From Candidatus Fermentithermobacillaceae bacterium (GTDB taxonomy: Bacteria; Bacillota; Sulfobacillia; Fermentithermobacillales; Fermentithermobacillaceae): a stretch of 64,000 nucleotides of DNA. The stretch is taken from the NCBI GenBank assembly GCA_012840345.1, contig DULO01000034.1:3013-67012 (forward strand), in the 5' to 3' direction. The notes below the pieces were generated by a model. That model was not told the origin of the DNA. It ran no database searches and saw only the letters and a program-made list of their open reading frames with translations. A program made the translations under genes and the position numbers. Below are positions 1,653 through 9,933 of this stretch, one piece after another. Within the stretch, counting starts at the first letter, position 1; every line of letters begins with the position of its first letter.

Positions 1653-1960
1653 TCCGAACCGCCTGTCGCCACCTCCTGTGAATCAAGTCATGGAGATGCC
1701 CGCTCACTTGACTGGGTGCTCCCGAGTCCTTCTCTCCAAGCTCAGGTAGAGGACACTTTAAGAAGCTATCTTCACACTTTGTCTGACCCTCCGACAGGAT
1801 TACTTCCCGGTTATGTCTCACTAAAGAGGAGTTTCACTCTAGAAACGTGAATCCGATAGGGAAGGAGATTCCAAATGTCTCCTCATCTGATAATAGATTG
1901 ATCATCTATCTGATCATACGCGCGAGGCAAGGGAAAGCCCCCAGCATTAGGAGGCTCCCG

Positions 1961-2623
1961 GGATTGGATGCCATAGAAGAGGCGGTTGGGCGGGCGACTG
2001 AAATGGGAAGACCCGTCCATTTCAGTCCAGGGATTGTTGAGCTTACCCATGAAAGGGCACCTCAGACACTGGCCGGACTTTCGGTTCTTTCATACGTGGC
2101 GTCCTTGTGCGCCAAGTACGACACCGGTTTGGTGACCACGATAATGAAGCCGGACGTCTACGTGGTCGCGGAAGACATCGTCAAGAACGCTTTTCTCGTT
2201 GAAGGAAAAGGAGAGCGCTACAGACCTGACATGGTTCGTTTCATCGGCGCTGAGCAGTTTGCTTACGGCGCCGCGGCCGTGGGTATCATGCATCGCGAAA
2301 AGGTCGCGGCCAACATCATGATCGGAGCGTGGTACGCGGAGTCATTGATGGTTACCGAAGGCGGCGCTCAGACCGGAGGCATACAAATAACGGGTTCGGC
2401 AACGGTTGCGCAGCTACCCTTCTTAGTGATCGCTTCGGACTACTGCCTCATGGGAGAGGAAATCTACGCGGCGAGCGCCTACTTGTCGAAAGACCCCACA
2501 CAGCTGGCCGTGATACTGGGCCAAGACCTGGCGAAAGCCGCGACCATAGCCATCATGGTCGTAGGAGCCGTGCTCTTGGCGTTTGGCTCTGATGTTGTTG
2601 TTCGGCTGATTAACAGCCAGTGA
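1961..2623 (+). CDS. Conserved hypothetical protein, gene A of a four-gene membrane operon. C-terminal hydrophobic helix. ORF is open from 1847 but the 5' portion is AT-rich.
   Basis: TTG at 1961 is preceded by 'aggagg' at 1949-1954. ATG at 2003 is an alternative start. 1847-1960 has non-coding-like composition. The gene ends 8 nt before gene B. Confidence 0.45.
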   Translation, partial: GLDAIEEAVGRATEMGRPVHFSPGIVELTHERAPQTLAGLSVLSYVASLCAKYDTGLVTTIMKPDVYVVAEDIVKNAFLVEGKGERYRPDMVRFIGAEQFAYGAAAVGIMHREKVAANIMIGAWYAESLMVTEGGAQTGGIQITGSATVAQLPFLVIASDYCLMGEEIYAASAYLSKDPTQLAVILGQDLAKAATIAIMVVGAVLLAFGSDVVVRLINSQ

Positions 2624-2630
2624 TGAGGAG

Positions 2631-3260
2631 GTGGGTTTCTTGAAAAGCACCGTACCCGTGGTAATCACCGCCGTAATCGGCATCGTAATGATCCTCGACT
2701 TCTTCCTTCCGGTGCAGTCTGTCAACAACATGGCATCGCTACTCCAGTCATGGGGAATCGTGATATCAGCGTTCGCGATGGGGTTGGGCGCAGTCAACCT
2801 CCTCAGAAGACACACAGGGATCATCGCCAAGGGCGAGAAGAGCATGTTATATAGCCTCCTGTTGGTAGGTTCGATGATCCTAACCATCATCGTAGGACTG
2901 TTTTTTGGTACGGGTAGTAAACTCTACGATTTCTTGTTCACAAACATTCTGTCAGCGGCGTCGCGCACTCTCTACGCGTCGATTGCCTTCTACATCTTAA
3001 GCGCCGCGTATAGAGCTTTTGTCGCGAAGAACCTGGACGGTTGGATCCTCCTGTTGACCGGCGTGGTCATCATGCTCGGGACGGCCCCCATAGGAGCTGT
3101 GATCTCGAAATTCTTCCCAGCCGCTTCCCAGTGGATTCAAGACATACCGAATACGGCGGGCATGAGGGCCATTATGATGGGCGCGGCCCTCGGAGTAGTA
3201 TCCAGCGCCGTCAAGACCTTCCTGGGGTATGACAAGAGCTACCTCGGGCAAGGGGAATGA
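2631..3260 (+). CDS. Polytopic membrane protein of about 5-6 TM (209 aa), gene B of the operon
   Basis: Strongly hydrophobic segments throughout. Weak similarity to gene D ('ILSAAYRAF' vs 'MLYARYF'). Translationally coupled to gene C. Confidence 0.5.
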   Translation: MGFLKSTVPVVITAVIGIVMILDFFLPVQSVNNMASLLQSWGIVISAFAMGLGAVNLLRRHTGIIAKGEKSMLYSLLLVGSMILTIIVGLFFGTGSKLYDFLFTNILSAASRTLYASIAFYILSAAYRAFVAKNLDGWILLLTGVVIMLGTAPIGAVISKFFPAASQWIQDIPNTAGMRAIMMGAALGVVSSAVKTFLGYDKSYLGQGE

Positions 3261-3276
3261 GGAGGCGAGACGCGGA

Positions 3277-4128
3277 ATGATGAGAAGTCTCCAATCAATA
3301 CCGAGGTCTTGGTTGTACGTAATCCTAATCGTCCTGCTTGCATGGCCTTTGATCAAGCCGATTGGCATCAAACTTGATATCAGCGACGAGACCAGGCGCT
3401 GCTACGAGGCTATCGAATCTCTTGAACCCGGTTCGGTGGTCGTGTTTGGTTTCGACTACTCGGCCGGCAACAAGGCCGAGATGGAACCCCAAGCTCTTGC
3501 CGTTCTGAGGCACTTGCTTAGGCGCAATGTTAAGGTAATCGGGCTCGCATTTGTCGAGCAAGGCCCAATACTAGGCGAACAGGCCTTCCAGAAAACAGGG
3601 TGGACAGAAAAGCAGTACGGAGTCGACTATATTAACCTGGGGTACCGCGCGGGAGGCCAGGGAACGGTTGCCGCCTTCGCGAACGACATACCGGGTACCT
3701 TCAACACTGATATAAGCGGCAAGCCGAGTACGAGTTTTCCCATCATGGAAGGGATAAAGACAGCGGCGGACATAGACCTCATAGTTACCATAGCTCCAGG
3801 TACGCCAGGTCCTGAAGACTATGTCCGTCAGGTGTTCAGTTCGTACCAGACGCCTCTTGTGTGCGGCGTGCCCGCCGTGGCGATCACTCAGGTCGCGCCG
3901 TACGTTCAAGCCAAACAGATAAAGGGTATTCTAGGCGGCAGCCCCGCTGCGGCACAGTACGAGTTGCTCATAGAACAGCCGGGCGATGCCGTGGCGGCCA
4001 TGGATGCCCAGTCGCTCGCTCACCTATTGATCGTGGCTGTCATCATACTGCGTAACATCGGTTATCTCGCCGAGAAGAAGGCATCGAACAACACGGCGAA
4101 CCCGTCCGGAAGGGGGACTCACTCTTGA
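3277..4128 (+). CDS. Membrane-anchored extracytoplasmic protein, gene C. N-terminal signal-anchor and C-terminal TM helix.
   Basis: ATG 3277 (MMRSLQSIPRSWLYVILIVLLAWPL...) follows 'ggagg' at 3261-3265. The ORF is open from 3229, overlapping gene B. C-terminal 'LAHLLIVAVIILRNIGYL' is a TM helix. Confidence 0.5.
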   Translation: MMRSLQSIPRSWLYVILIVLLAWPLIKPIGIKLDISDETRRCYEAIESLEPGSVVVFGFDYSAGNKAEMEPQALAVLRHLLRRNVKVIGLAFVEQGPILGEQAFQKTGWTEKQYGVDYINLGYRAGGQGTVAAFANDIPGTFNTDISGKPSTSFPIMEGIKTAADIDLIVTIAPGTPGPEDYVRQVFSSYQTPLVCGVPAVAITQVAPYVQAKQIKGILGGSPAAAQYELLIEQPGDAVAAMDAQSLAHLLIVAVIILRNIGYLAEKKASNNTANPSGRGTHS

Positions 4129-4715
4129 GCAAGAGCCTAGGTGTTTGGGTGGCGGGGTTAATGACCATTGCAATAGTGAGCTTGGTCTGGAAAGAGAACC
4201 CCTATTATCGTGTAGCTGAGCACCTTTATGTTGGCGTAAGCGCCGGCCACGCCGTGGTAATGGCGTTCAACAACATACGTGACAGCGCTGTCAAGCCTCT
4301 CATGGCGGGCAACTACCTATGGATAGTCCCCATCGTCCTGGGAGTAATGCTGTATGCCAGGTACTTCAAACAGATAGCGTGGTATTCACGCTTTCCCGTC
4401 TCGGTGTTAGTCGGTATCGGAATGGGCGTCGCTACTCGCGGAGCAATCCACGGTGACTTCGTCCAGCAAATATCCGCTACCATCAGAGTAGGGAGCCTCA
4501 ATGACGTCCTGCTGCTCCTGTTCACTATAGCTTCTCTGAGTTACTTCTTCTTCTCGAGGGAAGCCAAAGGAGCCGCCGGCGCGATCCCCCGAGCAGGCCG
4601 CTGCGTCCTCATGATCGCTTTCGGAGCCGCCTTTGGCACCACGGTCATGGGCAGAATGGCGCTGCTCATCGGTCGTATCCAGTTTGTGCTGGGAGAATTT
4701 TTGGGCATCATGTGA
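4125..4715 (+). CDS. Polytopic membrane protein (196 aa), gene D of the operon
   Basis: TTG start overlaps the gene C stop by 4 nt. RBS 'aggggga' at 4111-4117. Several TM helices. Confidence 0.5.
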   Translation: MSKSLGVWVAGLMTIAIVSLVWKENPYYRVAEHLYVGVSAGHAVVMAFNNIRDSAVKPLMAGNYLWIVPIVLGVMLYARYFKQIAWYSRFPVSVLVGIGMGVATRGAIHGDFVQQISATIRVGSLNDVLLLLFTIASLSYFFFSREAKGAAGAIPRAGRCVLMIAFGAAFGTTVMGRMALLIGRIQFVLGEFLGIM

Positions 4716-4720
4716 GAATC

Positions 4721-4763
4721 GCCCCGGGGCGCCCTTTGGGGCGTCCCGGGTTTTCTTTTTTCA
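4721..4763 (+). terminator. Rho-independent terminator closing the four-gene operon
   Basis: GC hairpin 'ccccggggcgccc tttg gggcgtcccggg' followed by 'gttttcttttttc'. Confidence 0.75.
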
Positions 4764-4835
4764 TCTACAAATCCTACGGATTCCCCTTGACTAAGCTTGT
4801 CCCGTAGGCATAGGATCCTTGTCGAAAGCAAAACA

Positions 4836-4911
4836 CTCTTTAAGGCTGGTCCGGAGAGTCCAGCAAGGGTAGAATCACGCAACGACTCTTGCTGGTAGGC
4901 AAGAGTTTTTT
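4836..4911 (+). promoter_or_regulatory. PyrR-binding transcription attenuator upstream of the uracil permease gene
   Basis: 'UCCGGAGAGUCCAGCAAGGG' (4850-4869) matches the PyrR binding-loop consensus UCCAGAGAGGCU.GCAAGG. Terminator hairpin 'ctcttgc tggtag gcaagag' plus 6 T at 4886-4911. Confidence 0.7.
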
Positions 4912-4956
4912 GATGCCTACCATCCCGCGGACAGGCCGACCCAAGGAGGTCTTCAA

Positions 4957-6279
4957 TTGTCCAAAGAACCTCTCAACGCGGTCGGGTACCTTCCCGACGA
5001 CACACCGCCCTTCGGTAAGATGCTCGTCTTCGCGCTCCAGCAGGTAATCGTCATGTTCCCCGCCACAGTGCTGGTAGCCATCCTCACCGGGTTCGACGTG
5101 GGCGTCACCATCGTCGCAAGCGGTCTGGCAACGTTAGGGTTCCTCTTGATCACCGGCCGCCGCATCCCGCTCTACTACGGTTCCAGTTTCTCCTACATCG
5201 CGGCAGTCGGAGGAGTATCGGCAATAGTGGCCGCCGAAACCGGAAACCCGGTCGCCGGCATTCAAGCGGCTCAGACGGGTATCATCGCTTCGGGCTTGCT
5301 CAGCGTCGCGGCCGGCCTCTTGATAAAGAAGGGCGGACCGAACATAGTCAAGAAAGTCCTGCCCCCATCGGTTACGGGAGCCGTCGCAATCATCATAGGT
5401 CTCTCGCTCGCTTCGGCAGCCATGTCTGACGCCTCGAACAACTGGCCCATCGCCATTGTCACGCTCATCGCCACAATTCTGTTCTCCGTGTATCTTAGGG
5501 GCACCCTCGGCCAGCTCTCCGTACTCTTCGGAGTCGCGGCCGGATATCTCTTCGCGCTAGCCCTGGGACAAGTGGACTTCACACCTGTGGTGACAGCCAA
5601 GCTATTCGCCGTCCCCAGATTCACGCTCCCGGCTTTTAACAAGTACGGGCTCATGGCCATCGGCGCTATCGCCCCGGTCGCGATCGCTACCATCCCCGAG
5701 TCCACGGCTCACTTGCTCCAGATTGACTTGTACGTAAACAACCTGGCGAAGCGCCTCGGCCGGAAGAAAGAATATAAGATTGCCGGGCTTCTCGGTGATA
5801 ACCTGATCGGCGACGGAATCGGAGATATAATCGCGGGCGCCATCGGAGGCCCCGCCGGAACCAACTACGGCGAGAACAACTCGCTCATGGCGATCACCAG
5901 GAACTTCTCGGTGCCGGTGCTTATCACCGCGGCTCTCATCGCCATCGTGATGGGCTTTTTCGGACACGTCGCCGGGATCGTGAACACCATCCCGCGGGCG
6001 GTAATCGGAGGAGTCTCAATCTACCTCTTCGGCGTAATCGGAGCACAGGGAGCGGCCCTCATGATTTCCGAAAAACTGGACCTGTTCTCGGCCAAGAACC
6101 TTGCTGTCGTAGCCACCATCTTGATAATCGGGTTGGGCGGAGCCGCTATGCCTAACGGCATGATCGTAATAGGCAACCTGGAACTCCCGGCCATCGCCAC
6201 CGCGGCCATTTTCGGCATCGTGCTTAACCTGGTATTCGAATTGTTCCCCGCGAAGCAAGACACGTCCGGGAATGAGTAG
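4957..6279 (+). CDS. pyrP: Uracil permease (NCS2 nucleobase:cation symporter family)
   Basis: 12-14 TM NCS2-like protein. TTG start 7 nt after 'aaggagg'. Preceded by a PyrR attenuator, as for pyrP/uraA in Bacillus. Confidence 0.75.
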   Translation: MSKEPLNAVGYLPDDTPPFGKMLVFALQQVIVMFPATVLVAILTGFDVGVTIVASGLATLGFLLITGRRIPLYYGSSFSYIAAVGGVSAIVAAETGNPVAGIQAAQTGIIASGLLSVAAGLLIKKGGPNIVKKVLPPSVTGAVAIIIGLSLASAAMSDASNNWPIAIVTLIATILFSVYLRGTLGQLSVLFGVAAGYLFALALGQVDFTPVVTAKLFAVPRFTLPAFNKYGLMAIGAIAPVAIATIPESTAHLLQIDLYVNNLAKRLGRKKEYKIAGLLGDNLIGDGIGDIIAGAIGGPAGTNYGENNSLMAITRNFSVPVLITAALIAIVMGFFGHVAGIVNTIPRAVIGGVSIYLFGVIGAQGAALMISEKLDLFSAKNLAVVATILIIGLGGAAMPNGMIVIGNLELPAIATAAIFGIVLNLVFELFPAKQDTSGNE

Positions 6280-8514: not shown

Positions 8515-9933
8515 GTGACCGTCAAAGCGCAAAAGGGGCTTCGGTACATTGATGAGAAGAGTGAGTTCCTGACCCGGCTTTCCGACGAGATTTGGGGATA
8601 CGCCGAGCTCGGTCTTCGCGAGTACAAGTCAGCCGAGTGCCTGGCTAAAGCCCTTGAGGAGGAAGGCTTCACCGTAAGGCGCGGTGTGGCCGGTATGCCA
8701 ACGGCGTTCGAGGCTACGTGGGGCGAAGGATCGCCTGTCATCGGGTTCTTGGCGGAGTACGATGCACTGCCGGGCGTTTCTCAGAAAGCCATTCCCGTAA
8801 GAGAAGAACTGGTTCCAGGCGGCCCGGGGCACGGATGCGGACACAACCTTCTGGGAGTGGGCAGCCTCGCGGCGGCCATTGGCCTCAAGCACGAAATGGA
8901 GTCCCGCAAGATTAAAGGCACCGTGAAGTACTTCGGATGCCCTGCCGAGGAGAACTTCAGTGGAAAAGCGTTTATGGCGCGGGAAGGACTGTTCTCCGCC
9001 TGCGATGCGTGCATTACCTGGCACGCCGGAGCGTTCAACAGGGTAAAGACAGGGTCGTCCTTGGCCAACAACGCGATGAACGTCACCTTTTACGGACGCA
9101 CGGCTCACGCCGCCGGAGACCCGTATAACGGCAGGAGCGCCCTGGACGCGCTTCAACTAATGAACCTGGGCGTGGAATTCTTAAGAGAGCACATGCCCCC
9201 GAGGGCGAGGATACACTACGTCATTACCGACGGCGGCATGCAGCCAAACGTGGTGCCGGCGAGGGCCAGCGCATGGTACTTAATCCGGTCTCCCGAGCGG
9301 GAGCAGGTTGACGAACTCTACAGGCGGGTACTGAACTGCGCGTACGGCGCGGCCCAGATGACCGACACCCGGTGCGAAATCGAGCTTATAAAGGCCATCT
9401 GGAACGTGCTGCCCAACGACTCCCTTGGCGACCTCCTTGAGGAATGCTTCGAGAGAGTGGGACCCCCCAAGTTCTCAGCCGAGGATCTGGCTTTCGCCGA
9501 GGAAATCTCCAAGACTTTCGCTCCCGGACAGCGCGAGGCGGTGTTGAAGAAAGCGGGAATCCCGACGGAGTTTTGGGGACAAATACTCAACGATACAGTG
9601 ATCCCGCGCCCTGAGACGCCCCTTGACAGCGACGGTTCCACCGATGTGGCTGATTGCAGCTGGTGTTGTCCGACCAACGAAATCAGCGCGGCTTGCCATG
9701 CCATCGGGACTCCGGGACACTCCTGGCAGTACACGGCCCAAGCCGGCATGTCGATAGGGCACAAGGGCATGCTCACCGCCGGAAAAGTCATGGCCGAGGC
9801 GGGATTCGTCCTGATGACCGAACCGGACGTCTTGAGAAGGTGCAAAGAAGAGTTCCTGCGGAGGACCGGAGGAAAGAAGTACGTTTGCGCCATACCCGAA
9901 GGCCAGGGACCGAAGTTCGACCAGTTCAAGTAA
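8515..9933 (+). CDS. M20D-family amidohydrolase (AbgB/aminoacylase-like metallopeptidase)
   Basis: 'GHGCGHNLLG' metal-binding motif. Roughly 470 aa, typical of AbgB/HipO-like enzymes. GTG start. Confidence 0.7.
   Translation: MTVKAQKGLRYIDEKSEFLTRLSDEIWGYAELGLREYKSAECLAKALEEEGFTVRRGVAGMPTAFEATWGEGSPVIGFLAEYDALPGVSQKAIPVREELVPGGPGHGCGHNLLGVGSLAAAIGLKHEMESRKIKGTVKYFGCPAEENFSGKAFMAREGLFSACDACITWHAGAFNRVKTGSSLANNAMNVTFYGRTAHAAGDPYNGRSALDALQLMNLGVEFLREHMPPRARIHYVITDGGMQPNVVPARASAWYLIRSPEREQVDELYRRVLNCAYGAAQMTDTRCEIELIKAIWNVLPNDSLGDLLEECFERVGPPKFSAEDLAFAEEISKTFAPGQREAVLKKAGIPTEFWGQILNDTVIPRPETPLDSDGSTDVADCSWCCPTNEISAACHAIGTPGHSWQYTAQAGMSIGHKGMLTAGKVMAEAGFVLMTEPDVLRRCKEEFLRRTGGKKYVCAIPEGQGPKFDQFK

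Follow-up and report, generated by a model that had tools for sequence, protein, structure and literature searches.

What four tightly packed genes, three of them encoding proteins of uncatalogued families, build together at the membrane is the question raised by a locus near the start of the stretch of DNA analysed here, 64,000 nt of a Candidatus Fermentithermobacillaceae bacterium (contig DULO01000034.1, positions 3,013 to 67,012; hereafter the window). We call the genes A, B, C and D. They recur elsewhere as a fixed module, and their products are most likely the four subunits of one dedicated membrane complex that has no characterised relative; we tentatively propose that this complex is a new solute uptake transporter. 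The copy of gene A in the window is a natural deletion allele.

A four-gene module conserved across phyla

We searched a species-representative genome collection with a profile of the A protein and located 589 loci, of which 80 were kept. Together with five others these make up the 85 loci examined, which were searched with profiles made from phmmer matches to B, C and D. A single module in the order A-B-C-D is present in at least 66 of the 85; others have two or three modules in tandem, or inverted pairs, and the exceptions, few in number, fall at contig ends or in masked sequence. Archaea and at least ten phyla keep the gene set and its order. It was found in Bacillota (among them the Fermentithermobacillaceae, the window's nearest named relatives), Symbiobacterium, Zixibacteria, Eisenbacteria, Ignavibacteria, WOR-3, Stahlbacteria, Cloacimonadota and Armatimonadota, together with one metagenome-assembled genome (MAG) labelled Myxococcales and two archaeal MAGs. 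Cultured carriers are Alkalicella caledoniensis and Anaerobranca gottschalkii. Natural fusions between subunits were absent from the 85 loci, and the window holds no second copy of the module.

In tandem arrays all four genes differ between modules in parallel, at 40-55% identity, which implies that whole modules duplicate and then diverge together. Parallel divergence of this kind is as expected of co-evolving subunits and of paralogues with different specificities. The common order in at least 66 other-genome loci and the duplication of modules as wholes thus bear out the original prediction that the genes are a dedicated unit and not unrelated neighbours. Among the arrays, the triplets of Zixibacteria and Ignavibacteria are old (40-55% identity), unlike the three tandem modules of one locus (L023, 8-8466), which are 87-98% identical and reflect a recent triplication.

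Conservation differs between the subunits: over 68 distant loci the median identity to the window proteins is 48% for A, 37% for D, 35% for C and 34% for B. Among the candidates scored, the A family falls into more than 3600 clusters at 90% identity; the B family has 2136 representatives at the 50% clustering level, and the D family 625 clusters.

The module had been described as lying in an accessory-looking stretch. That description does not fit, because the window otherwise consists of housekeeping genes (ileS, recA, mutS, RNase Y) and relatives of A were found on neither plasmids nor phages; a mobile-element origin was rejected for want of such relatives.

Layout of the locus

The features of the locus in the window are as follows.

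1653..1902, + strand: surviving upstream part of the intergenic region between the SdpI-family gene and A, same sequence as in the intact allele
1902..1903, no strand: junction of a 211-bp deletion, relative to five independent contigs
1847-2623, + strand: open reading frame (ORF) of gene A; the surviving coding part, 1903-2623, encodes a 5'-truncated DUF6754 protein
2640-3260 (alternative start GTG 2631), + strand: gene B, six-helix membrane protein of an uncatalogued family
3277-4128 (upstream ATG 3229), + strand: gene C, a helix, an extracytoplasmic domain and a second helix
4125-4715, + strand: gene D, six-helix membrane protein of an uncatalogued family
4723-4760, + strand: intrinsic terminator, 12-pair stem (11 G-C), 4-nt loop and T-run

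The spacer between A and B measures 7 nt from GTG 2631 and 16 nt from TTG 2640; the TTG stands 6 nt past GAGGAGGTG and is the more likely start of B. For C, the N-termini of 32 homologues align at ATG 3277, which has GAGGAGG upstream and leaves a B/C spacer of 16 nt. We consider this the likely start of the gene, and the overlap earlier described between B and C, which arises only from ATG 3229, is correspondingly disfavoured. D starts over the stop codon of C in a 4-nt overlap (TTGA). The terminator hairpin spans 4723-4750 and is followed by TTTTCTTTTT. With one strand, short or overlapping junctions, a single terminator and a conserved order, A to D have the usual sequence marks of an operon and are predicted to form a single transcription unit. 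The ORF calls and the hairpin agree with the first account of four co-directional genes joined by tight junctions and closed by a strong terminator. The genes, junctions and terminator of that account are thus real.

The window carries a deletion allele of gene A

The locus in the window is a natural 5'-deletion allele of its first gene. At 1902/1903 it is without 211 bp that five independent, otherwise near-identical metagenomic contigs carry. The alignment set the window against the contig of the closest A homologue, P0001 (L001), and three JGI contigs from other samples (L086-L088), all of which match it identically on either side of 1902/1903; the fifth contig also has an intact left junction. 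The missing segment (L001 1144-1354) holds about 150 bp of leader, the Shine-Dalgarno (SD) sequence GGGAGGTG, the ATG and codons 1-20 of A (MILQGKQFSFWTLVLLSATF, membrane helix 1). Gene A in the window is therefore left without its ribosome site, its start codon and its first membrane helix. The loss can also be read from the proteins: P0001 is 99% identical to the window's A but differs at its N-terminus, which is the MILQGKQFSFWTLVLLSATF helix, and the Pfam match of A spans profile positions 23-253 only, with positions 1-22 absent. The junction shows no microhomology, and one base at it fits neither flank. The deletion junction was not found in one metagenome scan, but the intact-junction control matched one contig only, so the organism is poorly covered and the missing junction is weak evidence.

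We considered what could still be produced from the truncated gene. An in-frame GTG at 1847 remains, 14 nt past AAGAGGAG, and the ORF is open back to it; an internal TTG at 1963, 9 nt past AGGAGG, is probably the start of A assumed in the earlier reading. The window's A is either silent or produced in an N-terminally altered form from GTG 1847 or TTG 1963. The lost helix would cross the membrane from outside to inside; hence a protein begun at either codon would keep its domain in the cytoplasm, and it would also retain the C-terminal anchor. The deletion allele may therefore be crippled rather than dead.

What had been taken for a long AT-rich leader is the scar of this deletion and not a regulatory leader. 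Its G+C content is only mildly low (49% against about 55% nearby), and positions 1903-1960 of it are coding sequence of gene A. Rfam gave no match in the leader region of the window or in the leader of the intact allele, the fold of the intact 402-nt leader is no more stable than those of shuffled sequences (z = -1.26), and the SD is the sole feature common to the upstream regions of related loci; on these grounds a riboswitch or structured leader was rejected. A promoter within the leader was rejected as well, since a scan of 1653-1846 found no promoter-like site.

Two further small features differ between the alleles. A short ORF in the intergenic region at 1875-1901, behind the ribosome-site-like GGAAGGAG, reads MSPHLIID and a stop in the window and MSPHLIIDWS and a stop in the intact allele (L001 1116-1148). 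The stop codon of A also differs, following INSQ in the window (2621-2623) and INS in L001 (2070-2072).

Subunit A, a DUF6754 protein

The original prediction assigned none of the four proteins to a known family, which holds for B, C and D but not for A. A matches Pfam DUF6754 (PF20539) with 273.5 bits (E 1.8e-81; gathering threshold 27 bits), and all A homologues found contain this domain. In the literature that could be searched, we found no mention of DUF6754 or PF20539, or of the four-gene family. Full-length DUF6754 proteins consist of a helix, an alpha/beta domain and a second helix, a layout seen in the intact allele and broken in the window copy; the description of A as a soluble protein with a C-terminal helix thus applies to the deletion product, the native protein having a helix on either side of the domain.

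The intact form of A is predicted to be a cytoplasmic Rossmann-like alpha/beta domain between two membrane helices; a model of the intact homologue has a predicted local distance difference test score (pLDDT) of 90.5. A fold search returned generic Rossmann matches only, and the fold is Rossmann-like of the non-P-loop kind. Many charged residues are invariant in A (E46, R50, E53, R151, E166, E172, D199, E205 and E206), and in homologue P0025 a Cys replaces the Ser of the HFSPG loop.

Outside the core domain, A is decorated in several lineages. In Gram-negative phyla its first membrane helix is preceded by a signal peptide and by a module of some 90 residues with the motif DxPNDxGxxIxLxW...YxIxR...YxYxV (for example L024 54-1253, L027 68-1285, L049 3196-4467, L031, L061 and about 25 others). 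We call this module FN3-like by pattern only, as Pfam does not recognise it. One Bacillota A (L068 5270-7732) has instead an N-terminal 550-residue beta-propeller of the BamB/PQQ_2 type (E 2e-24).

Subunits B, C and D and the predicted topology

Hydropathy gives two polytopic proteins and one helix-domain-helix protein, in agreement with the first description of B and D as polytopic and C as an anchored extracytoplasmic protein. B is predicted by the positive-inside rule to have six helices with both termini inside, and D is predicted to have six membrane helices with its N-terminus outside. C has basic residues at both termini, and its two helices enclose a domain of some 210 residues that should therefore face outward; by the same positive-inside rule the domain of A is predicted to lie inside and that of C outside. 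The second, C-terminal helix of C carries conserved polar residues (D, Q, H and N), and the anchoring helices of A and C together carry conserved Arg, Asp, Lys, His, Asn and Gln.

Among the 150 best B representatives, 20 have 60-415 extra residues placed exactly between helices 3 and 4. These B inserts, carried by P0353, P0355, P0334, P0398 and 16 others (also L093 6609-8114), include a WD40 propeller and tetratricopeptide (TPR) repeats, and several are without a Pfam match; in one further B (L084 2187-3710) the insert follows helix 1. The secreted N-terminal fusions of A and the outside-loop insertions of B support the predicted sidedness.

B and D had been thought distantly paralogous. Compared directly they give a BLASTP E of 24 and an hhalign probability of 10% (E 0.003), which on independent alignments becomes 0.65% (E 0.087); neither is significant. 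Comparison of their three-helix halves gave scores of 18-24; of 30 column-shuffled controls, 29 fell at 8.5-15.1 and the thirtieth at 134.4, and such a control is lenient for membrane helices. A and C are colinear over 183 columns at a probability of 0.7%. Paralogy of A with C and of B with D is accordingly unproven, the alignments being colinear and not significant.

Searches for known families

Even with a cutoff as loose as E <= 1, neither Pfam nor NCBIfam matched B, C or D; scans of 33 C and 54 D homologues gave no consistent weak match, and profiles of A, B, C or D have no sequence relatives in the PDB. We looked specifically for parts of known transport systems. The ATPase domain of ATP-binding cassette (ABC) systems, ABC_tran (PF00005), matches none of A to D at E <= 1, and ABC permease families (BPD_transp, ABC2, FtsX and others) match neither the window's B (E <= 1) nor D and 53 of its homologues. 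Subunits of tripartite ATP-independent periplasmic (TRAP) transporters and tripartite tricarboxylate transporters (TTT), namely DctQ/DctM, TctA/TctB and DctP/TctC, have no Pfam or NCBIfam match in B, C or D. In A to D there were also no matches to energy-coupling factor (ECF) transporter parts (EcfT, S component, EcfA), to Pfam domains of Enzyme II (EII) of the phosphotransferase system (PTS), or to SpoVAC, SpoVAD and SpoVAEb; as regards SpoVA, the module also occurs in non-sporulating phyla and archaea. PADLOC defence-system models gave a chance-level match only (E 0.08). The claim that the proteins carry no transporter signature therefore stands, as no transporter, SpoVA, ABC or ECF family was matched, and membership in a known transporter, sporulation or defence family was rejected.

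Gene neighbourhoods

In 30 Bacillota-type loci, 141 genes lie within three positions of the module. They include 12 Amidohydro_1/3 proteins (D-aminoacylase-like), 5 M20 and 3 M81/MlrC proteins, 2 gamma-glutamyltranspeptidases and 2 DUF885 proteins, and the amide hydrolases are often adjacent to the module and co-stranded with it. Archaeal loci are similar in content: one (L092 2457-18116) has MlrC, an amidase, a pyridoxal phosphate (PLP) enzyme and Amidohydro_3, and another (L094 7528-11299) has M20 upstream and a creatininase directly after D. In the window an M20 gene lies at 8515-9933, and such hydrolases account for 2 of the 52 other genes, the remainder being housekeeping.

A universal neighbour is lacking, the largest neighbour cluster being present in 9 of about 80 loci, and a search for a single conserved neighbour that would name the function found none. 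Some partners recur at varying positions in Bacillota, Eisenbacteria and Alkalicella: a MutL-like ASKHA protein (PF13941), an RnfC_N-type barrel protein and two small membrane proteins. The first two occur as a pair, a 610-aa MutL-like ASKHA protein with a protein of 370-440 aa that has an RnfC_N-type barrel-sandwich domain in L017 and no Pfam match in L091 (L017 2903-6031 and 10184-13412; L021, L026, L038, L045, L060; L091 12003-14944); the two small membrane proteins are often found with them. This pair may be an accessory or energising partner of the complex.

In Zixibacteria the module is part of the string folP-cdaA-obg-dprA-ptsH-ptsI-pgi/pmi-ABCD-(lipoprotein)-NTP_transferase-metK-ahcY, with overlapping junctions to pgi/pmi. 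Loci of this type are L080 (3790-10936), L039, L051, L070, L074 and L075. In Eisenbacteria, LplA and a TonB-dependent receptor follow the module.

What the complex may do

The reading that we favour, with a probability of roughly 0.4, is a new multi-subunit solute uptake transporter. In such a transporter the outside domain of C would receive the substrate, and B and D, with six helices each, would form a translocation path to which the four helices that anchor A and C would also contribute. The Rossmann-like domain of A, at the cytoplasmic face, would couple or regulate transport, through ligand binding or through other chemistry. In Bacillota and archaea the cargo might be a small amide nitrogen compound (a peptide, an N-acyl amino acid or a cyclic amide) that is passed to the adjoining amidohydrolases.

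Several features of the module suggest this arrangement: the fixed set of four genes, the paralogous modules that diverge in parallel, the conserved polar and charged residues in membrane helices, the position next to hydrolases, and the combination of a most conserved subunit that is cytoplasmic with an ectodomain subunit that is variable. Of the subunits of an ABC system, it is the energising one that is best conserved, and ABC or TRAP systems usually sit beside catabolic hydrolases. The tight junctions with one terminator, the predicted topology and the TonB-dependent receptor gene behind the module in Eisenbacteria also speak for this reading.

Other observations weigh against a transporter. 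No subunit has an ATPase, a transporter signature or, DUF6754 aside, a relative in Pfam, NCBIfam or the PDB. The model of D is weak, with a predicted template modelling score (pTM) of 0.43, and has no fold match. The enrichment of hydrolases near the module is a matter of small numbers and of MAG genes called by a crude ORF picker, and in Zixibacteria the module lies within a string of housekeeping genes. Moreover, propeller, TPR and FN3-like decorations fit an envelope machine better than a small-molecule transporter.

A wider form of the transporter reading, which we regard as doubtful, is that ABCD is an undescribed class of transport machine in Bacteria and Archaea. It would be built of two antiparallel halves, with A mirroring C and B mirroring D, and driven or gated by a non-P-loop cytoplasmic domain; it would have radiated into specificities for amide-type nitrogen compounds and, in Gram-negative lineages, acquired periplasmic propeller, TPR or FN3-like adaptors.

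The main rival of the transporter reading, unlikely in our estimate, is an envelope or cell-surface machine that moves or assembles lipid, glycan or protein across or at the membrane. A would then be a cytoplasmic nucleotide-sugar-binding or nucleotide-binding domain with a catalytic or coupling role, and C and the decorations would contact partners in the wall or outer membrane. Outside interaction modules are indeed fused in many lineages (FN3-like and BamB-like propeller on A, WD40 and TPR on B), and A resembles half a GT-B enzyme. In Zixibacteria a phosphoglucose/phosphomannose isomerase gene shows translational coupling with the module, behind which comes a sugar-phosphate nucleotidyltransferase gene, and the Myxococcales-labelled MAG has NTP_transferase and CDP-alcohol phosphatidyltransferase genes upstream. 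The Zixibacteria synteny is, however, that of one lineage and is mixed with unrelated genes (obg, dprA, metK), whereas the context in Bacillota and archaea is one of catabolic amidohydrolases and no envelope genes. Several diverged copies per genome, and tandem triplets, would also be unusual for a housekeeping machine.

We consider it improbable that the complex is a membrane-bound sensor or enzyme, in which C would bind an outside ligand and A would run or control a cytoplasmic reaction or signal with no net transport. The many invariant charged residues of A and its rank as the most conserved subunit would suit such a role, and sigma-54 activators and chemotaxis receptors are occasional neighbours. 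Yet an output domain (kinase, cyclase or DNA-binding) is present in no subunit and no conserved neighbour, and the twelve polytopic helices of B and D are excessive for the relay of a signal.

There is only a slim chance that the module is a new PTS Enzyme II, in which A would serve as an EIIB-like phospho-carrier through a conserved His59 and the Ser/Cys61 that follows strand 1, while the sugar-translocating pair would be B and D. The idea draws on the Zixibacteria-type loci, where ptsH (HPr), ptsI (Enzyme I) and phosphoglucose/phosphomannose isomerase stand directly upstream with overlapping stops and starts, and on P0025, with Cys instead of Ser in its HFSPG loop; but the association is limited to nine loci and the synteny of one lineage, and an outside binding subunit is foreign to PTS systems. 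Finally, chance adjacency of unrelated genes or mis-called ORFs, for which nothing but the missing annotation speaks, is refuted by the hundreds to thousands of homologues of each ORF and their fixed, co-occurring order across phyla.

Flanking genes in the window

The neighbours of the module are as first described. Upstream of A lies the SdpI-family gene (1281-1652; Pfam E 1e-18), and downstream of the terminator a uracil/xanthine permease gene (4957-6279). Ahead of the permease gene, at 4833-4914, is an element like the PyrR-binding site RF00515 (42 bits; gathering score 54), which a terminator-like hairpin at 4884-4907 overlaps; element and hairpin probably constitute a pyrimidine attenuator. 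Upstream of the SdpI gene, a 370-aa ORF (82-1194) that is kept in the near-identical contigs has no match in Pfam, NCBIfam or PADLOC.

Significance and comparison with known systems

Thousands of genomes of at least ten phyla and of archaea carry the module, often in several copies per genome, yet Pfam, NCBIfam and the PDB contain nothing that matches B, C or D. Should it prove to be a transporter, the few multi-subunit uptake systems would gain a new architecture, and unexplained transport gaps would be filled in anaerobes that degrade protein or necromass, where the module's neighbours are D-aminoacylase-like, M20, M81 and creatininase genes. Should it instead be an envelope machine, monoderm, diderm and archaeal envelopes would have it as a common component. 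Since cultured carriers exist, the module can be tested now under either reading.

On present evidence from sequence, and from a fold comparison that covered A and D, the module appears to stand outside all described kinds of membrane system. DUF6754 (PF20539) itself is a catalogue entry without function, structure or literature, and it covers A alone. Mannose-family PTS Enzyme II (IIC, IID and IIAB) likewise combines two different membrane subunits with an alpha/beta cytoplasmic part, and HPr, Enzyme I and phosphomannose isomerase adjoin the module in Zixibacteria. The likeness to KTN/RCK-gated transporters (Trk/Ktr) and to the dIII domain of membrane transhydrogenase does not hold, as their scores are no better than those of unrelated Rossmann folds and A is, from its sequence, without a GxGxxG motif and without an acidic residue after strand 2.

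TRAP and TTT systems are closer in plan: they take up solutes without an ATPase and are built of several subunits, among them an outside receptor and two membrane subunits. Those two subunits are unequal in TRAP and TTT, whereas B and D are of similar size; the module also has an extra Rossmann-like subunit and lacks similarity to DctP/DctQ/DctM or TctA/TctB/TctC.

Binding-protein-dependent ABC importers differ from the module in that it has no P-loop, no ABC signature and no match to BPD_transp or solute-binding protein (SBP) families, and in that its cytoplasmic subunit is anchored by two helices. They resemble it in having an outside receptor, two different polytopic subunits of about six helices and a conserved cytoplasmic subunit, in their arrangement as one operon beside catabolic hydrolases, and in their many paralogous copies; the receptor is membrane-anchored, as in Gram-positives and archaea. 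By analogy of layout, it is the binding-protein-dependent importer that the ABCD module appears most like.

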